From: Escherichia coli
GTDB taxonomy: Bacteria > Pseudomonadota > Gammaproteobacteria > Enterobacterales > Enterobacteriaceae
Direction: 5' to 3' (one strand)
NCBI RefSeq assembly: GCF_024502345.1
Contig: NZ_JALDNN010000001.1
DNA: 64,000 bases
Part shown: positions 1 through 44,677 of the stretch, in pieces
Layout of the letters: each line of letters opens with the position of its first letter
Numbering within the stretch: position 1 is the stretch's first letter
Notes under the pieces: generated by a model
The model's database searches: none
What the model saw: only the letters and a program-made list of their open reading frames with translations
Told to the model about the DNA's origin: nothing
Translations under genes and position numbers: made by a program

Positions 1-170
1 GTCAGTATTGTGCTGTTCAAATTGATGACGAATGGCTGGAGTGGTTTCTACTTTCAGTGCTGTGTACTAAGCCTGGTATTCCTGACGGTTAGCTGGTTGT
101 TGAGTGGTGAATGGTTAGCAGGAAAGAGTAAGGCTGAACCTTCACGTTCAACCTTACTCTCATTTACACG

Positions 171-3100
171 TTACGCTTTTTTAAAGCGGGCAAAGAGATG
201 TTCCACTACAACGAAAAAGACCGGAACGAAGTAAATTGCCAGCACTGTTGCGGCAAACATCCCGCCCATCACGCCGGTACCTACCGCGTTTTGCGCGCCA
301 GAACCGGCACCATGACTGATAACCAGCGGCAGCACGCCGAGAATAAAGGCCAGAGAGGTCATCAGGATTGGGCGTAAACGCATCCGCGCCGCTTCGATGA
401 TTGCCTCTATCGGCGTTTTCCCTTCTTTCTGCATCATCTCAACGGCAAATTCGACAATCAGGATGGCGTTCTTGGCGGAAAGCCCGATGGTGGTCAGCAA
501 ACCAACCTGGAAGTAGACGTCATTACTTAAGCCGCGCAGATCGGTGGCCAGTAATGCGCCAACGACGCCTAACGGAACAACCAACATCACCGAGAACGGA
601 ATTGACCAGCTCTCATAAAGTGCGGCGAGGGCGAGGAACACCACGACCAGTGAAATCGCATACAGCGCAGGAGCCTGATTTGAGGATAACGCTTCCTGAT
701 ACGACAGTCCGGTCCATGAGTAGCCGACGCCTGCCGGAAGTTTAGCGACCAGGTCTGCCATAAATTTCATGGCGTCACCGGTACTTTTCCCGGCCGCCGC
801 TTCACCTAAAATCTCCATTGACGGGATGCCGTTGTAGCGTTCCAGTCGCGGTGAACCATAGGTCCATTCGGTAGACGAGTAGGCAGAAAGCGGTGCCATC
901 GTGCCAGAGGCGTTGCGTACATACCATTGATTGATGTTATCCGGCAACATACGGAACGGCGTGCCTGCCTGGACATACACTTTTTTCACCCGCCCCTGGT
1001 TGAGGAAGTCGTTCACGTAGCTGCTGCCGAAGGCGGTGGAAATTGTCTGGTTGATATCAGACAGCGCCACACCCATTGCCTCAGCTTTCGCGGCGTTGAC
1101 GTTCACTTTGAACATCGGCGTATCTTCCAGGCCGTTCGGGCGTACCCCGGTGACCTGATTCGGTGATTGCGCTGCCAGTGATAACAGCTCGTTTCGTGCC
1201 TGGGTTAGTTTTTCGTGCCCCAGGTTACCGTTGTCCAGCAGTTCCATATCAAAACCTGACGCGGTACCCAGTTCAGCCACCGCGGGTAAGTTGAACGGGA
1301 AGACGACGGCTTTATTGATACTGCTTAGCGCAATCATTGCCCGCTGAATGATCGCGGTAACCGAGTTTTCCTCACCGACACGTTCAGACCACGGCTTGAG
1401 ACTGATAAACGCCAGGCCGTTGTTTTGCCCCTGGCCGCTGAAGCCAAAGCCGCCAACGGTAAACACCGACTGGACATTATCTTTCTCTTTAGTCAGATAA
1501 TAATCCGTCACCTGTTGCAGCACTTTCGTGGTGTTAACCATGGTGGCACCGGAAGGTAACTGCGCGGTGGTCATAAATACCCCCTGATCCTCTTCTGGTA
1601 AGAAAGAGGTCGGCGTGCGCAGGAACAGCACCGCCATCCCGGCGCAAATCAGCAGGTAGACCACCATGTAGCGACCGGTACAACGCAACAGCGAGCGGGT
1701 GCTATCGGTATAGTGCTGAGTTGATTTTTCAAACAGCGTGTTGAAGCGTGCGAACAGGGCGTTAGGTTTATGACCGCCTTCCGGCGCGGCTTTCAGAATG
1801 GTGGCGCACAGGGCAGGTGTCAGGCTCATTGCCACAAATACTGAAAGCAGCATGGAGGAGATCAGCGTGATGGAGAACTGGCGGTAGATCTCCCCGGTTG
1901 CACCGCTCATAAAGGCCATCGGCATAAACACTGCGGAAAGAACAACGGCAATACCGACCAGCGCACGTTGGATCTGCCCCATCGATTTATGCGTCGCTTC
2001 CTTCGGCGGTAGCTTATCTTCCGCAATGACACGCTCGACGTTCTCCACCACCACGATGGCGTCATCCACCAGTAACCCTATCGCCAGTACCATCCCGAAC
2101 ATAGTCAACGTGTTGATGGTGAAACCGACCGCCGACAAGATCGCAAACGTCCCGAGAATAACCACCGGTACGGCAATCGTCGGGATGATTGTGGCACGGA
2201 AATTCTGCAAAAACAGATACATGACCAGGAAGACGAGGATGATAGCCTCAACCAGTGTTTTGAAAACTTCCTGAATAGAAATTTCGATAAACGGCGTGGT
2301 GTCGTAAGGATAAACCGTCTTCAGACTTGCCGGGAAATAGGCTGATAAGCGGTTCAGTTCCTCTTTGACTGCCCGCGAGGTATCCAGGGCGTTTGCTCCG
2401 GCAGCCAGTTTGATGGCGATCCCGGCAGCAGGTTTGCCGTTATAGCGCGCCACGGTGGAATAATCTTCCGCCCCAAGTTCGACGCGAGCGACATCACGCA
2501 GCAGCACTTGCGAACCATCTTGCTGAACTTTCAACAGGATTTTGCCAAATTCTTCCGGCGTTTGCAGACGCGTCTGCACAATGATCGAGGCGTTTAGCTG
2601 CTGGTCTGCCGCCTGTGGCATGCCACCCAGTTGACCACCGGAAATCTGGTTGTTCTGCACCTTAATCTGGGAAATAACATCGGAAGGTTCCAGGTTATAT
2701 TTATTGAGTTTTTGCGGATCCAGCCAGATCCGCATGGCGTACTCGGAACCAAAGAGCTGTACGCTACCAACGCCCGCGGTACGGCTTAGCGGGTCTTTGA
2801 TATTAGACGCTACATAGTCCGCGATATCGTACTGGTTTAGGCTGCCGTTATCAGAAATAAACGCCGCTACCATCAGGATATTACTGCTCGATTTATCGAC
2901 GCTAATCCCCTGCTGCTGCACTGCTTCAGGTAATGAAGGCATAGCGAGTTGCAGTTTATTTTGCACCTGAACCTGTGCGATATCAGGAGATGTCCCAGTT
3001 TCGAAGGTCAGAGTGATAGAGGCATTACCCGCCGCATCACTGGTTGAAGACATGTACATCAGGCCATCAAGCCCATTCATATTTTGCTCAATCACCTGAG

Positions 3101-3284
3101 TGACCGAGTCTTCTACCGTTTGCGCATCGGCACCCGGATAGGTAGCGCTGACGGTAATGGTCGGTGGCGCAATCTGCGGATACTGCGCAACCGGTAAGTT
3201 CATGATCGCCAGACCACCTGCAAGCATCATAATAATGGCAAGTACCCAGGCAAAAACCGGGCGATCAATAAAATAGTTAGCCAT
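171..3284 (-). CDS. mdtF: RND multidrug efflux pump, inner-membrane transporter (AcrB/MdtF family), 1037 aa
   Basis: Full-length ORF; translation has the RND permease architecture and an N-terminus ([24 protein letters not shown]) matching MdtF/YhiV; sits immediately downstream of a periplasmic adaptor gene. Confidence 0.95.
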
Positions 3285-3308
3285 GAAAGTCCCCTTAAGC
3301 CTGCAACG

Positions 3309-4466
3309 TTATTGTTTCGATTCGGTGCTGGCGTTTTCCTGGCTGGAGGAAATTGCTCGTGCTTTGATACCTGGACGAATGCGTTGCAAACCGGAAACGA
3401 TCACCCGATCGCCAGCCTGCAAGCCAGAGGTGACAACCCACTGGTCGCCGATGGCTTTGCTGGCTTCAATTTCGCGTAGCTGCACGACATCGTCTTTATC
3501 CAGAATGAGCGCCGTTGCTTTACCCTGGGCGTTGTGGGTGACGCCTTCCTGCGGCACCAGTAATACATTCTGGCGGCTACCTTCATCCACTAATGCCGTG
3601 ACATACATGCCAGGCAGCAAGTCACCATTTGGGTTGGGGAAAATCGCCCGTAACGTCACGGAGCCCGTGGTTTCATCAACCGTCGGGTCGGAGAATTTCA
3701 GCGTGCCGGTCTGGCTGTAACGTTTACCATTTTCCAGATTGAGCTGTACTGGCGTACTGCCCTGAACCTGTTTGATTTGCCCACTGGCGACCTCTTCTTT
3801 CATGCGTAAGAAATCTTGCACCGACTGCGTGAGATCGACATAAATCGGGTCCAGACGTTGTACGGTAACCAGCGAATCTGCCTGATTAGCGGTAACGAGT
3901 GCGCCGACGGTCACCGACGATTTCCCGCTGACGCCCGTAATCGGCGAGGTGACATTCGCGTATTGCAGATTGATCGTCGCCTGTTCAACAGCCGCTTTGG
4001 CGACGGTGACATTGGCTTCTGCTTCATTCAACTGGGTGCGCGCGGTGTCGTAATCCTGACGGCTAACGTAGTTGGTCTTCAGCAACGATGCCTGGCGGTT
4101 AAAGGTGATGCGGGCATTGCTGGCGGTAGAGAGCGCTTTCGCCAGCGAGCCTTTGGCGGAGTTTAGCTCGGCCTGTAAAGGTGCAGGATCAATCTGATAC
4201 AGCGAATCGCCCTGGTTCACTTTATCGCCTTCGATAAAGTTGCGTTTAATGATAATACCGCCCACCTGGGGACGTATCTCGGCAACTTCATAAGGAACGG
4301 TTCTACCGGGCAATTCGCTCAACACATTGACCGACCCAGGGGAGAGTGTGACGACACCGACCTCAGGCGTCATGGCGGCGGTGTTTTCCGCCGATTTGTC
4401 ATCGCAGGCGGTGAGCATCGCGCCGCAGAATAACAACGGTATTAACAGCTTTCTTCTTCTGTTCAT
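3309..4466 (-). CDS. mdtE: RND efflux periplasmic adaptor (membrane fusion) lipoprotein, 385 aa
   Basis: ORF with lipoprotein signal peptide and lipobox (LTAC); HlyD/AcrA-like sequence; 24 bp upstream of mdtF on the same strand. Confidence 0.95.
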   Translation of the reverse strand: MNRRRKLLIPLLFCGAMLTACDDKSAENTAAMTPEVGVVTLSPGSVNVLSELPGRTVPYEVAEIRPQVGGIIIKRNFIEGDKVNQGDSLYQIDPAPLQAELNSAKGSLAKALSTASNARITFNRQASLLKTNYVSRQDYDTARTQLNEAEANVTVAKAAVEQATINLQYANVTSPITGVSGKSSVTVGALVTANQADSLVTVQRLDPIYVDLTQSVQDFLRMKEEVASGQIKQVQGSTPVQLNLENGKRYSQTGTLKFSDPTVDETTGSVTLRAIFPNPNGDLLPGMYVTALVDEGSRQNVLLVPQEGVTHNAQGKATALILDKDDVVQLREIEASKAIGDQWVVTSGLQAGDRVIVSGLQRIRPGIKARAISSSQENASTESKQ

Positions 4467-4804
4467 TTTATTCCCTGAAAATTCTTGAGAAATAACGGTT
4501 CTTTAAATTGCGCGCGAGGAGAGATATGAGGGATTTACAGACCAGCGGCATAGTGGGGTTGTCAGCCAGTAAGGTGGGATACAGGCATAGTGATCGACAT
4601 GGTGAGGTCAACGACAAAAAAAATGTTGCCGTTCTGCCAACAGTTCCTGCCAGCATTCGGGCAACGAAGGGTTCGACTGGTGGATACACATACCAGGGGA
4701 ATAAAGTCGTTTTAGCCTCTCCTTTAGTAATCACCGGGGGTAATGAAATCAGCATCTGCATCCCTCGTCATGCCAGCCATCAATTTCAGTTGCTTATGTC
4801 CTGA

Positions 4805-5332
4805 CTAAAAATAAGATGTGATACCCAGGGTGACGATGTCGCTCATACGTCTTAGTTTCAGCTTGTACATAATGTTGAATTTCTGAATCTTTAATGTTTG
4901 TTGCGAAATATTAAGCGTCGACGTGATATTGCTTTCATTTTTATTTTTCAGAATCAATTGCATAATTTTGAACTGATTATGTGAAAAACATAATTGTGAA
5001 TTCTTATGGGGCAAGTGTTTACCATAAGTAATCTCAAGAAGATTTTTGATACTTTCTTTGCGGCTAACAAAATAAATAGGCGCTTTAGCTTTTAGTTTAC
5101 TGATGTGATAAGGTGCCAAAACAATAATTCTCTCGGCATCTAATTTCTCCAGAAATTTAATCGCTTCTTCATCAAGGATATGATTGTGATAGGTATCAAT
5201 GATAACCTTGAAGGGTTTATTGCCTACTTTTTTGATCTCTGACAGGGAATTGATTTTTATCATTTCGTGATTATCTTTCAACTGCCAAAAGCCCTGTAAA
5301 AGAAAAGAATCTTTCGTCATGAGAAAAATCAT
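4805..5332 (-). CDS. gadE: LuxR-family acid-resistance transcriptional activator GadE, 175 aa
   Basis: ORF 4805..5410 trimmed to the internal ATG giving MIFLMTKDSFLLQGFW..., the GadE N-terminus; C-terminal LuxR-type HTH; AT-rich gene. Confidence 0.9.
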   Translation of the reverse strand: MIFLMTKDSFLLQGFWQLKDNHEMIKINSLSEIKKVGNKPFKVIIDTYHNHILDEEAIKFLEKLDAERIIVLAPYHISKLKAKAPIYFVSRKESIKNLLEITYGKHLPHKNSQLCFSHNQFKIMQLILKNKNESNITSTLNISQQTLKIQKFNIMYKLKLRRMSDIVTLGITSYF

Positions 5333-6080
5333 AACTTGCTCCTTAGCCGTTATCGTTTCGAACATGTCATCCTTTTCATTATTTACATCCTTGTCCGAAT
5401 CGTTGTTCAATATAGTAAACGCCTATAAGAACTTTGCCCTTCGTGAACTAATACGTCTATTAACACTAATCAATACTTCAGATTTATCCATCACGCACTC
5501 CATATATTGATCCTAAGTAAGATCCCTGGTTGTTATCAGCTTGTAAATAGTAAACAAAAAGTTAACGTTTGCGGATTACTGCCCAAGAATAAGTTATCAA
5601 TAACCAGTTTGTGATCTCTGAAGAATATTACTAAAGTTAAAATGTAATCCGATTTAAATATCGAGTCTCCTTGTTTCGACTTAAGCTGGCAATTGGATTG
5701 CCAGCTTTCTTTTAACGCATTGAAATTACCTGAGTAAATAACGCATTCATGTCTTCAGGTTTTTATATAGCGTCTGGAGACATGGATATTTATGCAATGT
5801 AATCAACGCCAGTTGCAAAAAAATGAACCCGGATTACTTATTTAACCGCCCATAGCATCAACGCTTACGGAACTCTTTGTTCACTTTCCCACAGCACTTT
5901 TAAAACATTAAACCTGACTACGGAAAATATCAGCCATGATAATGTTTGAAATGGCTAATTTGCCATGGAGTGAAAAAAATTAGATGAAATTCAGTAGGTT
6001 GAAATAATCACTAGCAGGTAATTATTTCAATGATAGTGCGCAATTGATCTACAACACTGCGTAGCGGAGAGAGTATTAAT
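5333..6080 (-). promoter_or_regulatory. Long AT-rich gadE upstream regulatory region (multiple promoters expected; an antisense sRNA arrS is reported in this leader)
   Basis: About 750 bp non-coding AT-rich sequence upstream of gadE; knowledge of the gadE sensory-integration region; individual promoters not mapped here. Confidence 0.5.
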
Positions 6081-6113
6081 CGGATCATAGTCACATCAAG
6101 TGACTATGATCCG
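6081..6113 (-). terminator. Perfect 14-bp stem / 5-nt loop hairpin just downstream of hdeD (candidate hdeD terminator or binding site)
   Basis: cggatcatagtcac-atcaa-gtgactatgatccg read directly from the sequence; lies 18 bp past the hdeD stop codon. Confidence 0.5.
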
Positions 6114-6130
6114 GGTGACAACCGGGATAA

Positions 6131-6703
6131 TTATTGCTGCTTAACGAACAAACTGGCGAAGCTGAACAGGCTGGCGGCGCTAAATATCAGTTCAATTCCC
6201 ACCAGTGTGGAAACCAGCGTTACAGACACCATCGGCGTTGCACCAAGGAATATCCAGGCAATGACGATATCCAGCACACCAATAACGAGCTGTAGCCAGC
6301 TGCCTTTCATTGAACGCTGACGATACCAACTCATCAGGCGAATAACCCCTGCAACACAGAACAAACCGGCAATAAATGCCGCAATGGCAAAAATGCCCAG
6401 CTCCGGTGCGCGGATGAAGAAATAGCCGATCAATAAATAGGCGACTGCGACGAGGAAACCGGATAATACCGGCCAGAAATTATGACTGCGGTTGCTGAAT
6501 AATCCAACAATAAGCGCAATGCCCGAACAGATTAATAATGCACCTACTACTGTGCTTAAAATATCGCCAGAAACGAACGGGAAACTGATACACAGCAACC
6601 CGACGATAAACAGCAGCACGGCAATAAACTGGATTGCTCTGCGATGCTTTTTCAGCATCTCCAGATCAAACTTCAAAATTGTTGCCTTATCTATATATAA
6701 CAT
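6131..6703 (-). CDS. hdeD: Acid-resistance inner membrane protein HdeD, 190 aa
   Basis: ORF translation MLYIDKATILKFDLEMLKKHRRAIQF... with multiple TM segments; divergent from hdeAB. Confidence 0.93.
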   Translation of the reverse strand: MLYIDKATILKFDLEMLKKHRRAIQFIAVLLFIVGLLCISFPFVSGDILSTVVGALLICSGIALIVGLFSNRSHNFWPVLSGFLVAVAYLLIGYFFIRAPELGIFAIAAFIAGLFCVAGVIRLMSWYRQRSMKGSWLQLVIGVLDIVIAWIFLGATPMVSVTLVSTLVGIELIFSAASLFSFASLFVKQQ

Positions 6704-6957
6704 AGAACCACCCTATAAAATTAAGAAGAAAATCCCCTGCTATCAATCTATGCCAAAAACGCGTCTAAGAATGCAGTCGATTTAATAAAAATTTCCTAAT
6801 TGCAGTATCTGATGCATCTGTAACTCATTGTATTGAAATAAAAATATCTGATTTTGATATTTTCCATCAACATGACATATACAGAAAACCAGGTTATAAC
6901 CTCAGTGTCGAAATTGATTCGTGACGGCTCTTTCACTTTATAGTTGAGGATATTACG

Positions 6958-7290
6958 ATGAAAAAAGTATTAGGCGTTATTCTTGGTGGTCTGCTTCTTC
7001 TGCCAGTTGTGAGCAATGCAGCGGATGCGCAAAAAGCAGCTGATAACAAAAAACCGGTCAACTCCTGGACCTGTGAAGATTTCCTGGCTGTGGACGAATC
7101 CTTCCAGCCAACTGCAGTTGGTTTTGCTGAAGCGCTGAACAACAAAGATAAACCAGAAGATGCGGTTTTAGATGTTCAGGGTATTGCAACCGTAACCCCA
7201 GCTATCGTTCAGGCTTGTACTCAGGATAAACAAGCCAACTTTAAAGATAAAGTTAAAGGCGAATGGGACAAAATTAAGAAAGATATGTAA
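6958..7290 (+). CDS. hdeA: Periplasmic acid-stress chaperone HdeA, 110 aa
   Basis: ORF with signal peptide and sequence MKKVLGVILGGLLLLPVVSNAADAQKAADNKKPVNSWTCEDFL... matching HdeA. Confidence 0.96.
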   Translation: MKKVLGVILGGLLLLPVVSNAADAQKAADNKKPVNSWTCEDFLAVDESFQPTAVGFAEALNNKDKPEDAVLDVQGIATVTPAIVQACTQDKQANFKDKVKGEWDKIKKDM

Positions 7291-7405
7291 TTCCGGGAAT
7301 GCGTTACATCGTACTTCCTTGCATATTGAACAGGCCGGAATATCTTCTTTAAAAGCAGCTATTCCTCCTGTTCATATATAATCTCTATATTGAATGGGTT
7401 ACAAA

Positions 7406-7732
7406 ATGAATATTTCATCTCTCCGTAAAGCGTTTATTTTTATGGGCGCTGTAGCGGCTTTGTCACTGGTGAACGCACAATCTGCGCTGGCAGCCAATGA
7501 ATCCGCTAAAGATATGACCTGCCAGGAATTTATTGATCTGAATCCAAAAGCAATGACCCCGGTTGCATGGTGGATGCTGCATGAAGAAACAGTATATAAA
7601 GGTGGCGATACAGTTACTTTAAATGAAACCGATCTCACTCAAATTCCTAAAGTGATCGAATACTGTAAGAAAAACCCGCAGAAAAATTTGTATACCTTCA
7701 AAAATCAAGCATCTAATGACTTGCCGAATTAA
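7406..7732 (+). CDS. hdeB: Periplasmic acid-stress chaperone HdeB, 108 aa
   Basis: ORF 7394..7732 trimmed to ATG at 7406 (MNISSLRKAFIFMGAVAALS...); immediately downstream of hdeA. Confidence 0.93.
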   Translation: MNISSLRKAFIFMGAVAALSLVNAQSALAANESAKDMTCQEFIDLNPKAMTPVAWWMLHEETVYKGGDTVTLNETDLTQIPKVIEYCKKNPQKNLYTFKNQASNDLPN

Positions 7733-7749
7733 TGAGGTACAAGTAAAAA

Positions 7750-7785
7750 GGAGTAGCAAGTTGAGCCATCTTGCTGCTCCTTTTT
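7750..7785 (+). terminator. Candidate intrinsic terminator after hdeB
   Basis: Imperfect 11-bp stem (ggagtagcaag / cttgctgctcc) followed by a T-run directly after the hdeB stop. Confidence 0.5.
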
Positions 7786-7795
7786 GCATTTTTAT

Positions 7796-8443
7796 ATGAC
7801 AGCAGAATTTATTATACGTCTTATACTCGCGGCAATTGCCTGTGGCGCTATTGGCATGGAAAGGCAAATGCGCGGCAAAGGAGCAGGGTTACGCACACAT
7901 GTATTAATTGGCATGGGAAGCGCCCTGTTTATGATTGTTTCGAAATATGGTTTTGCTGACGTGCTGTCTTTAGATCACGTCGGACTGGACCCCAGCCGTA
8001 TTGCTGCTCAGGTGGTGACGGGCGTCGGGTTTATCGGTGCAGGTAACATTCTCGTTCGTAACCAAAATATTGTAGGTTTGACGACGGCAGCGGATATCTG
8101 GGTGACCGCCGCCATAGGTATGGTTATTGGCAGTGGTATGTACGAACTGGGTATTTATGGTTCAGTGATGACCTTGCTGGTGCTGGAAGTCTTCCATCAA
8201 TTAACCTTCCGCCTGATGAACAAAAATTACCATTTACAGCTGACATTAGTGAACGGTAATACGGTATCAATGCTCGACTGGTTTAAGCAGCAAAAAATAA
8301 AAACTGATTTAGTTTCGTTGCAGGAAAATGAAGATCATGAAGTGGTCGCCATTGATATCCAGCTTCATGCCACAACGTCGATAGAAGATCTGTTGCGATT
8401 ATTAAAAGGTATGGCAGGGGTGAAAGGCGTTTCAATTAGCTAA
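7796..8443 (+). CDS. yhiD: MgtC-family inner membrane protein YhiD, 215 aa
   Basis: ORF 7784..8443 trimmed to ATG at 7796 (MTAEFIIRLILAAIACGAIGMERQ...), MgtC/SapB-like. Confidence 0.9.
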   Translation: MTAEFIIRLILAAIACGAIGMERQMRGKGAGLRTHVLIGMGSALFMIVSKYGFADVLSLDHVGLDPSRIAAQVVTGVGFIGAGNILVRNQNIVGLTTAADIWVTAAIGMVIGSGMYELGIYGSVMTLLVLEVFHQLTFRLMNKNYHLQLTLVNGNTVSMLDWFKQQKIKTDLVSLQENEDHEVVAIDIQLHATTSIEDLLRLLKGMAGVKGVSIS

Positions 8444-8484
8444 TCTGTGTGGCAGCGTAGCCAGACTCACCGTAAGCCTGAAAT

Positions 8485-9015
8485 TCACACCAGATAATCA
8501 ATATGCTGATGGCGTACCAGCTCATTGATCCGCTTAAGATTGAGGATCATCATGATATTGTGTTTATGGCAGTAGAACGTTTTTAGCGATATTTTCAGTT
8601 TCTCCAGAATATCTTCCGTTGTCATTTGATTCGCAATGCAGCTCAGAACCTGATGTTGCTTGCGCGAAAGTGACACAGCCGCTTCAGGCACAGAGCAGTA
8701 ACTGCCATTGATGAGTGCGACAAAATCAATGATAGTGATAGTCCGCGGAACAAAGGTCACCGGCACTTTCCCCAGGCAGCGTTTAATATTAAAGGGGGAG
8801 AAAATAATCACATGGACAGGTTTTAATCGTTCAATTTGAGTGAGAAAATTAGAATGAAATACATTATTCATTAATGTATCAATAATGACGAAGGCATTCT
8901 GATGCAACATTACGTCGATCTCTTCTTCGTTCTGTATATGAACGACATTACCTTTACTCAGAATGTTTTTCATCGCGGTGAAGAACATCGTATCCCTGGT
9001 AATTATAAGAAACAT
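8485..9015 (-). CDS. dctR: LuxR-family regulator DctR (YhiF), 176 aa
   Basis: ORF translation MFLIITRDTMFFTAMKNILSKGNVVHIQNEEEIDV... with C-terminal HTH; downstream of slp on the same strand. Confidence 0.92.
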   Translation of the reverse strand: MFLIITRDTMFFTAMKNILSKGNVVHIQNEEEIDVMLHQNAFVIIDTLMNNVFHSNFLTQIERLKPVHVIIFSPFNIKRCLGKVPVTFVPRTITIIDFVALINGSYCSVPEAAVSLSRKQHQVLSCIANQMTTEDILEKLKISLKTFYCHKHNIMMILNLKRINELVRHQHIDYLV

Positions 9016-14119: not shown

Positions 14120-14205
14120 CGTAAAAAAACCGACTTTGCGTCGGTTTTTTACTTTCCAGCCCAGAGTTGGTGGCTCTGGCTGGAGTGAGAATGCCCACAT
14201 CTAAC
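14120..14205 (-). ncRNA. agrB: agrB-like small antisense RNA (repeat copy nearest arsR)
   Basis: Block shared with the dinQ leader (ctggctggagtgagaatgcc...) on the opposite strand to dinQ; putative -35 ttgcaa / -10 tagtat on the minus strand; hairpin plus U-run at 14123..14150. Ends approximate; agrA/agrB naming from recollection of K-12 order. Confidence 0.55.
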
Positions 14206-14351: not shown

Positions 14352-14442
14352 GATGTAAAAAAACCGACTTCGCGTCGGTTTTTTTACTGTTCAGCCCTGA
14401 GTTGGTGGCTCTGGCTGGAGTGAGAATGCCATCATCTAACGC
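14352..14442 (-). ncRNA. agrA: agrA-like small antisense RNA (repeat copy nearest dinQ)
   Basis: Second copy of the same repeat with its own putative -35 ttgcaa / -10 tagcat and terminator hairpin at 14355..14385; ends approximate. Confidence 0.55.
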
Positions 14443-36710: not shown

Positions 36711-37834
36711 TGCGCCATTTACGCAATATTTTTAATCTGGGTATCAAAGAGTTGCGCAGTCTACTCGGTGATAAAGCGATGCTGACATTGATTGTCTTCT
36801 CGTTTACGGTGTCGGTGTATTCGTCAGCGACCGTGACGCCAGGATCGTTAAACCTCGCGCCGATCGCCATTGCCGATATGGATCAATCGCAGTTATCGAA
36901 CCGGATCGTTAACAGCTTCTATCGCCCGTGGTTTTTGCCACCGGAGATGATCACCGCCGATGAGATGGATGCCGGACTGGACGCCGGGCGTTATACCTTT
37001 GCGATAAATATTCCGCCTAATTTTCAGCGTGATGTCCTCGCCGGACGCCAGCCGGATATTCAGGTGAACGTCGATGCCACGCGCATGAGCCAGGCATTTA
37101 CCGGCAATGGGTATATCCAGAATATTATCAACGGTGAAGTGAACAGCTTTGTCGCGCGCTACCGTGATAATAGCGAGCCGTTGGTATCGCTGGAAACCCG
37201 GATGCGCTTTAACCCGAACCTCGATCCCGCGTGGTTTGGCGGGGTGATGGCGATCATCAACAACATTACTATGCTGGCGATTGTATTGACCGGATCGGCG
37301 CTGATCCGCGAGCGTGAACACGGCACGGTGGAACACTTACTGGTGATGCCGATAACGCCGTTTGAGATCATGATGGCGAAGGTCTGGTCGATGGGGCTAG
37401 TGGTGCTGGTGGTATCGGGATTATCGCTGGTGCTGATGGTGAAAGGCGTGCTGGGCGTACCGATTGAAGGCTCGATCCCGCTGTTTATGCTGGGCGTGGC
37501 GCTCAGTCTGTTTGCCACCACGTCAATCGGCATTTTTATGGGGACGATAGCGCGTTCAATGCCGCAACTGGGGCTGCTGGTGATTCTGGTGCTGCTGCCA
37601 CTGCAAATGCTTTCCGGTGGATCCACGCCGCGCGAAAGTATGCCGCAGATGGTGCAGGACATTATGCTGACCATGCCGACGACACACTTTGTTAGCCTCG
37701 CGCAGGCCATTCTCTACCGGGGTGCCGGATTCGAAATCGTCTGGCCGCAGTTCCTGACGCTGATGGCAATTGGCGGCGCGTTTTTCACCATTGCGCTGCT
37801 GCGATTCAGGAAGACGATTGGGACAATGGCGTAA
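36710..37834 (+). CDS. yhhJ: ABC-2 family transporter permease YhhJ, about 374 aa
   Basis: ORF 36626..37834; tandem ATGATG at 36707..36712 overlapping the rbbA stop; conserved N-terminus [19 protein letters not shown]. Confidence 0.9.
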   Translation: MRHLRNIFNLGIKELRSLLGDKAMLTLIVFSFTVSVYSSATVTPGSLNLAPIAIADMDQSQLSNRIVNSFYRPWFLPPEMITADEMDAGLDAGRYTFAINIPPNFQRDVLAGRQPDIQVNVDATRMSQAFTGNGYIQNIINGEVNSFVARYRDNSEPLVSLETRMRFNPNLDPAWFGGVMAIINNITMLAIVLTGSALIREREHGTVEHLLVMPITPFEIMMAKVWSMGLVVLVVSGLSLVLMVKGVLGVPIEGSIPLFMLGVALSLFATTSIGIFMGTIARSMPQLGLLVILVLLPLQMLSGGSTPRESMPQMVQDIMLTMPTTHFVSLAQAILYRGAGFEIVWPQFLTLMAIGGAFFTIALLRFRKTIGTMA

Positions 37835-37842
37835 GGAAGGGA

Positions 37843-37900
37843 ACTTGACTTCATACTGTGATGTCATACTATTGATGTCATAAAGTGAAGTCATAAGGAC
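37843..37900 (+). promoter_or_regulatory. Candidate promoter/operator upstream of the hicA-like gene
   Basis: Inverted repeat tgacttca (37846..37853) / tgaagtca (37886..37893) bracketing tandem gtcata repeats; aagga RBS before ATG 37906. Confidence 0.45.
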
Positions 37901-37905
37901 ATGCC

Positions 37906-38181
37906 ATGAGAACCAAGGTACAGGCTTTACGGAAGAAACAAAAAAATACATTGGATCAAATATTTAAAACTCCTGTTCCTCAAGGGATCAAGTGGTCTGA
38001 TATAGAGTCACTGGTTAAAGCATTAGGCGGAGAAATTAAGGAAGGAAGAGGTTCGCGTTGTAAGTTCATACTAAATATGAGCGTTGCGTGTTTCCATCGG
38101 CCTCATCCGTCGCCAGATACCGATAAAGGCGCTGTAGAAAGCGTGCGTGACTGGTTACTAAGTATAGGGGTAAAACCATGA
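37906..38181 (+). CDS. HicA-like (YcfA family) type II toxin, putative mRNA interferase, 91 aa
   Basis: Small ORF with HicA-like pattern (KWSDIESLVKALGGEIKEGRGSRCKF...FHRPHP...KGAVESVRDWLLSIG); 4-bp ATGA overlap with the downstream antitoxin-like ORF. Confidence 0.7.
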   Translation: MRTKVQALRKKQKNTLDQIFKTPVPQGIKWSDIESLVKALGGEIKEGRGSRCKFILNMSVACFHRPHPSPDTDKGAVESVRDWLLSIGVKP

Positions 38182-38537
38182 TCAAACTGAAGACGCCAAA
38201 CTCTATGGAGATTGCCGGGCAACCTGCTGTTATCACTTACGTGCCAGAACTGAATGCATTTCGTGGCAAATTCCTGGGCTTGTCAGGTTATTGTGATTTT
38301 GTCTCTGACAGCATTCAGGGGCTGCAAAAAGAAGGGGAACTTTCCCTGCGAGAGTATCTTGAGGATTGTAAAGCTGCGGGTATTGAGCCGTATGCGCGTA
38401 CAGAAAAGATTAAGACCTTTACGTTACGCTATCCAGAATCGCTGAGTGAACGCCTTAATAATGCGGCTGCGCAGCAACAAGTCTCTGTTAATACCTATAT
38501 TATTGAAACACTGAATGAGCGTTTGAATCATTTATAA
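38178..38537 (+). CDS. HicB-like type II antitoxin with C-terminal ribbon-helix-helix DNA-binding tail, 119 aa
   Basis: N-terminal HicB-like fold signature (YxGxxxxxxELNAFRGKFLGLSGYCDFVSDSIQGL...EYLEDCKAAGIEP) and C-terminal RHH-like segment (FTLRYPESLSERLNNAAAQQQVSVNTYIIETLNERL). Confidence 0.75.
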   Translation: MIKLKTPNSMEIAGQPAVITYVPELNAFRGKFLGLSGYCDFVSDSIQGLQKEGELSLREYLEDCKAAGIEPYARTEKIKTFTLRYPESLSERLNNAAAQQQVSVNTYIIETLNERLNHL

Positions 38538-38591
38538 ATTTTAGCGGCGTACATTACGCAGAATATCTGCCTTTACAGGATCTATCTATGC

Positions 38592-38624
38592 AACTGAACT
38601 TAATTTTATAAATTAAGTTCAGTT
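38592..38624. terminator. Perfect 15-bp inverted repeat with 3-nt spacer (candidate hicAB terminator or recombination/binding site)
   Basis: aactgaacttaattt-tat-aaattaagttcagtt read directly; T-rich tract follows on the plus strand. Confidence 0.5.
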
Positions 38625-38656
38625 AATATCTTTTCTTTCCTCGTTTTAGAAATAAC

Positions 38657-41460
<2,804 letters not shown>

Positions 41461-41464
<4 letters not shown>

Positions 41465-42405
41465 GCGTGCGCTCCTTCATGACGACGAATGCGCGGGTCC
41501 AGCGCGGCGTTGAGCAAATCGACAATCAAATTACAGACCACAAAAACCACCACCATCATCAGCGTAAAGCACTGAATCACCGGATAGTCACGGTTAAAAA
41601 TCGCCGACACCGCATAGCGCCCGACGCCCGGCCAGGCAAAGATGTTTTCGATAATCATCGTCCCGCCAATCAGTTCGCCGATGTGCATCCCCACGGCGGT
41701 GATCATCGGCAGCGAGGCATTGCGCAGAATATGGCGGCGTTCGGTCTGTTTGTCGTTCAGGCCGCGCAGACGCGCCCAGGTGACGTGACGCTGACCGGCG
41801 ACGTCCAGCATACTGGCGCGCAGTAAACGCGCGTTAATCGCCAGCGACATAAAGGCAATGGAAACCGCAGGCAAAATGATGTGCTGCCAGCCGCCGTAGC
41901 CCATCGCGGGTAGCCATTGCAGATACACCGAAAACGCCATCACCAGTAAAAACGCCAGCCAGAAGTTAGGCATCGACACGCCAAGAAATGCGATGAAACG
42001 TACGGCGAAATCCGGCAGACGGTCGCGATGGCGCGCCGCCCAGATACCGAGCGGTACGGAAGTGAGCAGAATTAATACCAGCGCCGCACCTGCAAGTTCC
42101 AGCGTGGCGGGCAGGAAGTTCAGCATATCGTCCAGTACCGGGCGTTGGCTGGCGAATGAGATACCAAAGTCAAGATGCAGCGCCTTCCACAACCAGGTGC
42201 CGTACTGGACGTACAGCGGCTGATCCAGTCCCAGCATGGTGCGGGTAGAGGCCAGCATCTCCGGCGTCGGCGGCAGGTTAGACAGACGCAAATAATCGAG
42301 CGCCGGGTCGCCGGTACCGAGGCGCAGCATCAGAAAAATGATCACCGAGGCGGCGAGCACCATCGGGATCAGCAGCAGAAAGCGGCGTAATACGTAACGC
42401 AACAT
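41461..42405 (-). CDS. nikB: Nickel ABC transporter permease NikB, 314 aa
   Basis: Polytopic permease ORF of the OppB/DppB type, [24 protein letters not shown]... Confidence 0.93.
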
Positions 42406-43979
42406 TAAGGTTTCACCGGTTTAATCTGTTCGAACGGAATTTCGGTGGCGATCGGCGCGTAGGGGATGTTACCCAGCTCCGGTTTTGATACCACCATCAT
42501 TGAGATGTAACTGATAGGCAGATAAACCGCCTCGTCATGCAGACGGGTCAGAATGTCGCGATACAGCGCCTGACGTTGCGTTTCGTCATGGGTCGCCAGC
42601 ACTTCGCCGATCTCTTTATCAATCAGCGGTTTGTCGGCTAATCCTTGCTGTGCCTGGAAGTCAGCGTGTGACGGTACGCGCATTGAACTGAGGAAGGCGT
42701 GTGGATCGTATGGCGCGCCCCAGGTGCGGTGGAAAATCATGCCAAAACGACCGTCGCGCTGACGAGCATAGATACTGCTCTCTTCTTCGCCAATCAGCGA
42801 GACATCTGCGCCAATCTGGCGCATATCAGCCTGAATGATTTCCGCCATCGATTTGCTTAACGCATCGGTGCCGATGAACGACAGTTCAATGCGCAGCGGC
42901 TGACCATTTTTCTCGCGGATGTCTTTGCCCGCAGGCAGCGTCCAACCGGCTTTTTCCAGCAACTCTTTTGCTTTCTGCGGATCGTACTGGCGCGGTTTCA
43001 GGCCGAGGTTGGCGTAGGGCACAGAAGGGGCAAACAGGGTGTCGGCGACCTGCTGGGTGCCATACAACGCGTTATCAATCAGCGATTTTTTGTTTACCGC
43101 GTAATTAAGAGCTTCACGTACTGCCAGCTCGTTGGTGGGGGCTTTGGCGGTATTGAGCGCCAGCATCACGGTTTCGATCGGCTGTGACAGTTGGGTGTGG
43201 TAAGCCGGATTCTGGCTAAAGCGGGCGAAGGTATCGAGCGGTAATAACCCTTCGTTTCCGTACAGCAGGTCGATATCGCCAGTTTCAAACGCCACCGCGC
43301 GGGTAGTCGGGTCCGGGATGACGTTAAAAGTGATCTTCTTAATCGCCGGCTTTTCGCCCCAGTAGTTTTCGTTACGGACGAAGACATCGTACTGATTCAG
43401 TTTCGATTCCTGCAAAATCCACGGTCCGGTGCCAATCGGCGCTTTAATTCCGTTCATGGTTTCATGGTTTTTAAACTGCGAGGGGGCGATAAAACGGAAA
43501 GGGCGCGGCAGGGCCAGTTCTTGCAGGAAAGGATAGTAGGCGCTTTTCAGGGTGATTTGCAGCTCTGTTTTACTGAGTGCTTTAACATCAACAATCTGGT
43601 TTGCCAGCTCCAGCCAGGCGTGACGTTGACGGTTATCGAGCACTGCGCGGAAGTTTTCTGCCGCCGCCTCTGCATCAAACGGTTCGCCGTTAGAGAATTT
43701 CACGTCATCACGCAGGGTGAAGGTCCAGGTTTTACCATTTTCCGAATGGGTCCAGCTTTTTGCCAGCCACGGGATCACCGAACCGTCTGCCTGATACTTC
43801 ACCAATGGTTCATAAACCATGCTCTGGGCGAACATCTGGTTAGGCGTGTAAAGGTGCGGGTTTAGTGGCCCGACATTCACCGGCCAGGCGGTGGTGATTT
43901 CATCTGGTGCAGCGGCATGGACGATAAAAGACGCACAAGCCAGCAGCGCAAATAGAGTGCGGCGGAGTGTGGAGAGCAT
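42405..43979 (-). CDS. nikA: Periplasmic nickel-binding protein NikA, 524 aa
   Basis: ORF with signal peptide, family-5 solute-binding protein; first gene of the nik operon. Confidence 0.95.
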
Positions 43980-44016
43980 GGTAACCCCAATGGATTAAAA
44001 TAGATGGCGGAAATCA

Positions 44017-44044
44017 GTATGACGATTTTAAGTATTCGTCATAC
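44017..44044. promoter_or_regulatory. NikR operator in the nikA promoter (GTATGA-N16-TCATAC)
   Basis: gtatgacgattttaagtattcgtcatac located 38 bp upstream of the nikA start codon; matches the known NikR dyad. Confidence 0.85.
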
Positions 44045-44089
44045 TGATTACCTGTTCTGGATCAATAGATGGGCAGTCGGGTGGGCGGA

Positions 44090-44677
44090 TCAGTTAACTG
44101 AATCGATCCATTGCACACTGTCGGCGGAGAGCGTAAAGGGGGTAGGGGTGCAGATCGCCAGACTTAAATTTTCCAGCTGACAATGGCTGACTGACAGCGA
44201 GGAGTGATAGGTGCTATCTACGCTGACGATTTGCCAGGCGCTGCCGCCACGCTGTTTAACGATGGCTTCTTTGCGCGTCCAGATGCGCCAGAACATTTCC
44301 AGTTGCTGATCAGGATGCACGGCGTCCATTTCAGCGTGTTCCCCGAGGCTGAACACGGCGTTCGCCAGCCAGCGCCAGTTGGCGCGCGGGCGAATCACTT
44401 CGATATCGCAGCCGACTTCGCCTTCATCGCTCAACAGCAGAGCGATATCGTCACCGCTATGGCTTAAGTTGAACCATAGCGGCGTTTCCGGCGCGAATGC
44501 AGGTTTGCCTTGTTCGCCATAGATGATCTCCGGTAGCGGGGAAAGCGTGTGCGAAAGCAATGCACGCCCCGCCAGCCAGCGTTCGCGTCGTGGACCTTGC
44601 GGTGCTTGCTCGCGTAAACCCGGTGGCAGTGGAGCTGCGCTTAAGGTCGAAACTTTCCCCAGAACTATCCGATACAT
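44090..44677 (-). CDS. acpT: 4'-phosphopantetheinyl transferase AcpT, 195 aa
   Basis: ORF translation MYRIVLGKVSTLSAAPLPPGLREQAPQGPRRERWLAGRALLSHTLSPLPEIIYGEQGKPAF... Confidence 0.93.
   Translation of the reverse strand: MYRIVLGKVSTLSAAPLPPGLREQAPQGPRRERWLAGRALLSHTLSPLPEIIYGEQGKPAFAPETPLWFNLSHSGDDIALLLSDEGEVGCDIEVIRPRANWRWLANAVFSLGEHAEMDAVHPDQQLEMFWRIWTRKEAIVKQRGGSAWQIVSVDSTYHSSLSVSHCQLENLSLAICTPTPFTLSADSVQWIDSVN

Follow-up and report, generated by a model that had tools for sequence, protein, structure and literature searches.

The main finding of this study is that the 28-bp inverted repeat GTATGA-N16-TCATAC at positions 44017-44044 of the window, by which we mean the whole 64-kb stretch of Escherichia coli chromosomal DNA analysed here, is almost certainly the operator of the ribbon-helix-helix repressor NikR in the promoter of the nikABCDE(-nikR) nickel-uptake operon, where the repressor would occlude the promoter and override its activation by FNR. 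The dyad is the actual NikR operator of E. coli rather than a mere relative of it, and it was already known. Our reading draws on the sequence of the site, which is unique in the window and identical to the corresponding site in K-12, on a cognate protein that is likewise identical, and on a phylogenetic footprint. The features discussed below are collected in Table 1.

Table 1. Coordinates of the nikA operator-promoter region, of the surrounding genes and of other annotated elements in the window
Feature	Position	Strand	Basis or remark
NikR operator (28-bp dyad)	44017..44044	-	GTATGACGAATACTTAAAATCGTCATAC on the nikA-sense strand
Promoter-distal half-site GTATGA (operator positions 1-6)	44039..44044	-	Direct sequence reading; near-maximal information content in 74 distinct orthologous upstream regions
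Promoter-proximal half-site TCATAC (operator positions 23-28)	44017..44022	-	Direct sequence reading; kept in orthologous regions
-10-like hexamer TAAAAT (operator positions 15-20, inside the spacer)	44025..44030	-	TAnAAT fixed in the cross-species alignment
FNR-type box TTGATCCAGAACAG	44052..44065	-	8/10 matches to TTGAT-N4-ATCAA; ends 7 nt upstream of the operator
Putative nikA transcription start, A at operator position 27	44018	-	FNR box centre 44058.5 plus reported -40.5
acpT, upstream neighbour, bounds the regulatory region, outside the nik system	44090..44677	-	NF007676 at 395 bits, above cutoff; RefSeq annotation
nikA, periplasmic nickel-binding protein, first gene of the repressed operon, 524 aa	42405..43979	-	NCBIfam TIGR02294 nickel_nikA (837 bits, cutoff 393); RefSeq annotation of matching E. 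coli loci
nikB	41461-42405	-	NCBIfam equivalog model above cutoff
nikC	40631-41464	-	NCBIfam equivalog model above cutoff
nikD	39867-40631	-	NCBIfam equivalog model above cutoff
nikE	39064-39870	-	NCBIfam equivalog model above cutoff
nikR, repressor binding the operator	38657..39058	-	NF002815 (235 bits, cutoff 83) and TIGR02793, above cutoff
IS5-family transposase ORF	26206-27222	+	NF033581, E = 1.8e-109
RND permease, presumably mdtF by position	171-3284		Best model AcrB, score below cutoff
AgrB antisense RNA (dinQ-agrAB type I toxin locus), first copy	14121-14204	-	Rfam gathering-score match
AgrB antisense RNA, second copy	14355-14439	-	Rfam gathering-score match
ES205 sRNA	4616-4687	-	Rfam gathering-score match

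The original prediction had placed this dyad at 44017-44044, and its coordinates proved exact. When both strands of the whole window are scanned, GTATGA-N16-TCATAC has one exact match, which is the site under study, and no exact match was found in 100 dinucleotide-preserving shuffles of the window. The half-sites GTATGA and TCATAC are in inverted orientation and separated by a spacer of exactly 16 bp, which corresponds to about two helical turns. The dyad lies 45 nt 3' of the acpT stop codon, within the 110-bp acpT-nikA intergenic region, and is upstream of nikA because this gene is on the minus strand, running from 43979 to 42405. From the proximal half-site (44017) to the A of the nikA ATG (43979) there is a gap of 37 nt, in agreement with the "38 bp upstream of the nikA start" given originally. 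That the nik operon is on the minus strand had been left unstated, which changes nothing since the half-sites are symmetric. With up to two mismatches allowed, a single extra site was found in the window, at 38044-38071 (GGAAGA-N16-TCATAC), which we rejected as a second NikR site because matches of this quality are at chance level (mean of 1.86 per shuffle at two mismatches or fewer). By its coordinates, this second dyad maps inside a hicA-like coding region.

The comparison with K-12 carries much of the argument. In the alignment with K-12 MG1655, the operator is identical at 28/28 bases and occupies the same place ahead of nikA, and the acpT-nikA region as a whole shows a single difference in 150 aligned bases, which is outside the operator. 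The K-12 nikA operator-promoter thus shares with the window the same 28 bp, the same distance to the nikA ATG, the same upstream FNR box, the same leader and the same NikR protein, and differs only by one base just 3' of the operator, at window position 44015. The NikR encoded in the window is identical to K-12 NikR over 133/133 residues, and the alignment shows R3, T5 and T7, which we take to be DNA contacts, as well as H76, H87, H89 and C95, which presumably form the nickel site. Its sequence is also that of PDB entries 1q5v, 2hza, 2hzv and 3od2, which include the operator complex. The reading frames of nikB, nikC, nikD and nikE overlap or abut, and nikR, the last gene of the cluster, starts 5 nt beyond the end of nikE. 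The 321 bp around the dyad are present in 5425/5426 complete E. coli genomes, invariably between acpT and nikA.

The published record concerns the same DNA and the same protein. GTATGA-N16-TCATAC has been described as the operator in the nikABCDE promoter that Ni(II)-NikR binds with nanomolar affinity (PMC7055735), the enterobacterial NikR signal was given by comparative genomics as GTATGAT-N13/14-ATCATAC (PMC545781), which is the same dyad with the same spacing, and E. coli NikR is described as having a single target, nikABCDE, repressed via a well-defined palindrome (PMC3177205). Both Ni(II)-dependent binding of NikR and nickel-dependent repression in vivo have been documented for K-12 DNA and protein identical to those in the window (PMC7055735, PMC3177205), and the work on the K-12 operator cited in PMC7055735 comprises Chivers & Sauer 2000/2002, Bloom & Zamble 2004, and Schreiter et al. 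2006, the last of these on the NikR-operator complex. The claim that this is a NikR recognition site is therefore borne out by the K-12 sequence, by the motif in the literature (PMC7055735, PMC545781, PMC3177205) and by conservation upstream of nikA orthologues. The original prediction had also staked itself on the published operator not being located elsewhere, and the literature motif is indeed placed in the nikABCDE promoter, so that this objection does not apply. A search of literature full text returned no match to the operator 28-mer or to two 13-mer fragments, and the probable tie of our site to the K-12 footprint is made through review statements together with sequence identity with K-12. 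All the features of an E. coli-type NikR operator that can be checked in silico were found, including a cognate NikR, with an N-terminal ribbon-helix-helix and a C-terminal nickel-binding domain, encoded in the same cluster. The operators of Helicobacter pylori NikR (ureA, nixA and others) are also dyad-symmetric sites for a tetramer of the same ribbon-helix-helix family. However, H. pylori NikR is pleiotropic, activates or represses, and recognizes a looser and different consensus, whereas E. coli NikR has a single target and is purely a repressor (PMC3177205).

The phylogenetic footprint extends these findings well beyond E. coli. A NikA search restricted to one genome per species yielded 80 loci from other species, the dyad was sought within 400 bp upstream of each nikA orthologue, and two 430-bp coding windows per locus served as control. 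Within these 400 bp, the exact dyad was found in 52 loci, a version with one mismatch in 23 and a version with two mismatches in 1. When the operator of one Escherichia locus that lies beyond 400 bp is added, the counts become 53 exact, 23 with one mismatch and 1 with two, i.e., 77/80 loci. The spacing is 16 bp in 76 of these 77 orthologous sites and 15 bp in the remaining one. By contrast, the best matches in the control coding windows had 3-5 mismatches, with 2 in a single case. The three loci without the dyad belong to a Desulfovibrio MAG, Paenibacillus and Domibacillus, with NikA identity of 50% or less, and the footprint as a whole covers Enterobacterales and some alpha- and gammaproteobacteria. 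From 74 distinct upstream regions we derived the consensus aTTGATCCag.acA-N7-GTATGAtGAAT..tTAaAATCgTCATAC or, in a longer form, aTTGATCCag.acA-N7-GTATGAtGAAT..tTAaAATCgTCATACttttt. In it, the conserved islands are the half-sites, the TAnAAT hexamer of the spacer and the FNR half-site, and the sequence on either side is unconserved. The most frequent variant of the proximal half-site in the orthologous regions is TCACAC. Escherichia has C/G at operator positions 7/22 (GTATGAC...GTCATAC), whereas in the majority of other genera position 7 is T and position 22 is A or G. Within the species, the K-12 57-mer, which comprises operator positions 2-28 and 30 nt of leader, has a 100% match in 5145/5425 complete E. 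coli genomes.

Two of the Escherichia loci in this sample carry insertions, both of them just downstream of the operator. In Escherichia sp. E1V33 (locus L004), the intact exact operator is at 1002-1029 of the locus, 472 bp from nikA, from which it is separated by an insertion of ~430 bp (1030-1460). This insertion contains an 81-bp tandem repeat in 3.1 copies (1143-1394), is rich in REP-like GC palindromes, and is followed by a degenerate partial copy of the right end of the operator (aatcgtcgccatactt). Should transcription still start from this promoter, nikA in this strain would have a leader of ~470 nt. In Escherichia sp. MOD1-EC7003 (locus L005), an insertion of ~112 bp (1365-1480 of the locus) separates the operator from the nikA ATG. 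Its sequence (…gaatccccaggcgcttactaaagtaagtgactgaggtg…) resembles an ERIC/IRU repeat element, and GTATGACGAGTATA happens to occur within one of its ends.

The arrangement of the promoter around the operator is consistent with a role in repression. nikABCDE is directly activated by FNR, as indicated by FNR ChIP-seq and expression data, from a site at -40.5 (PMC3688515). The FNR-type box in the window corresponds to such a site, and in the orthologous regions its TTGATCC and downstream ACA are kept, the conserved FNR half-site being 21 bp upstream of the dyad. A distance of 40.5 nt from the box centre at 44058.5 puts +1 at 44018, from which it follows that the operator would span about -26 to +2 and overlap the core promoter. 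With this start, the TAAAAT hexamer in the spacer would lie at -12 to -7 and, judged by where it lies with respect to the FNR site at -40.5, would act as the -10 element. The arrangement agrees with that of an FNR-activated class II promoter, in which a TTGAT-N4-ATCAA box is centred near -41.5 or -40.5. A sigma-70 consensus scan of 43900-44250 returned no promoter, so the -10 and +1 assignments stay putative, but we do not count this against the promoter because an FNR-dependent promoter lacks a good -35 element.

An inverted repeat downstream of a stop codon may be read in another way, as mainly an RNA hairpin that acts as terminator or stabiliser at the 3' end of the acpT transcript, in which case the likeness to a NikR site would be secondary, or both roles would coexist. 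As minus-strand RNA, the intergenic region does fold into a 14-bp stem (-24.3 kcal/mol, z-score of -5.0 versus shuffles), which lies 45 nt beyond the acpT stop codon, and in the window the arms of the perfect DNA palindrome are 12 bp long. Nevertheless, we consider this explanation highly unlikely on several grounds. A terminator scan of 43900-44250 found no terminator-like site, and the stem is AT-rich and followed by UUUCC (TTTCC) with no U-run, unlike an intrinsic terminator. An acpT-like gene precedes nikA in just 8/80 loci, whereas the dyad is present in 77/80, so it is nikA, rather than acpT, that the dyad accompanies. Moreover, the most conserved positions are those of the outer half-sites and of the TAnAAT in what would be the loop, as expected for a protein site plus a -10 element and not for a stem, and the inner-arm positions 7/22 are mismatched (C/A) in some species (e.g., in loci L016 and L073). 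That the dyad is a chance palindrome, or the site of another regulator that merely resembles a NikR site, is hardly credible, since nothing specific speaks for it other than the shortness of a motif of 12 specified bases, and against it stand the 0 matches in 100 shuffles, the identity with the K-12 operator at the same position with the cognate repressor in the same operon, and a conservation with fixed spacing in about 77 species, when controls are at 3-5 mismatches.

With the dyad as the NikR operator, a simple mechanism can be proposed. Cytoplasmic Ni(II) would fill the high-affinity sites of the NikR tetramer, the two DNA-binding domains of which would each engage one GTATGA half-site, two helical turns apart. 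NikR bound to the 28-bp site (about -26 to +2, with TAAAAT in the spacer) would then exclude RNA polymerase, because the operator contains the -10 hexamer, and would override anaerobic activation by FNR from -40.5, the outcome being that nickel import would be placed under negative feedback. In this scheme, the operator motif, the half-site binding mode, the nanomolar affinity and the FNR position come from the literature, and we infer the exact transcription start and the geometry of occlusion.

The consequence of binding had been described originally as nickel-dependent autorepression of nikABCDE, and this description is loosely right. Repression of the transporter genes by nickel agrees with the literature on K-12, but the "auto" applies only insofar as nikR closes the cluster, 5 nt after nikE, and is probably in part co-transcribed from the repressed promoter. 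As De Pina et al. reportedly described in 1999, nikR also has a weak constitutive promoter of its own, and the main effect would therefore be nickel-dependent repression of the transporter genes.

The single difference from K-12 deserves a comment. At window position 44015, beside the proximal half-site, the sense strand has G where K-12 has T, so that the sequence right after the operator is TCATACTGATTT in the window versus TCATACTTATTT in K-12. The G extends the arms of the perfect palindrome from 10 to 12 bp (TCAGTATGACGA / TCGTCATACTGA), and it is at about +4 of the putative transcript. This variant is rare: the 57-mer of the window has a 100% match in 10/5425 complete E. coli genomes, versus 5145 for the K-12 allele. 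The G is also present in Escherichia sp. MOD1-EC7003. We consider it quite unlikely that the G alters the affinity of NikR, through non-specific flanking contacts or DNA shape, or the strength of the promoter in this lineage, or that the strengthened hairpin affects the 3' ends of acpT transcripts. Position 44015 is the sole local peculiarity of an otherwise ordinary operator.

Several other features of the window were recorded along the way. The region downstream of nikR (38549-38658 and 37771-38548) is strain-variable. In the window, about 110 bp are followed by a hicA/hicB-like pair of toxin and antitoxin genes, which coordinate mapping to FDAARGOS_944 places at about 37907-38538 on the + strand, and then by yhhJ. 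Neither the rhsB element found after nikR in K-12 nor the 5.8-kb GntR/PTS/FGGY-kinase/aldolase island of FDAARGOS_944 is present. Nucleotide identity of the window to FDAARGOS_944 is only 94.5-99%. A 1.2-kb stretch at 26173-27369 that FDAARGOS_944 lacks contains the IS5-family transposase ORF (Table 1) and adjoins a 400-aa ORF (24919-26121) that is the yhiN orthologue by coordinate mapping. At positions 1-9015, the window contains the end of the acid-fitness island, in which the RND permease is accompanied by mdtE, hdeD, hdeA, hdeB, an MgtC/SapB-family protein (yhiD) and then a 176-aa ORF (8485-9015) that maps to dctR of FDAARGOS_944. The chuA/chuS heme-uptake locus, which FDAARGOS_944 has at this junction, is absent from it in the window. 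The AgrB RNAs and ES205 are ordinary E. coli features.

In conclusion, the operator is ordinary and has long been characterised, and our analysis does not advance knowledge of it: the nik locus of E. coli just happens to fall within the window. What the footprint does show is strong conservation of the site, of the -10 hexamer inside it and of the FNR half-site in about 77 species, and among more than 5,400 E. coli genomes the operator hardly varies at all.
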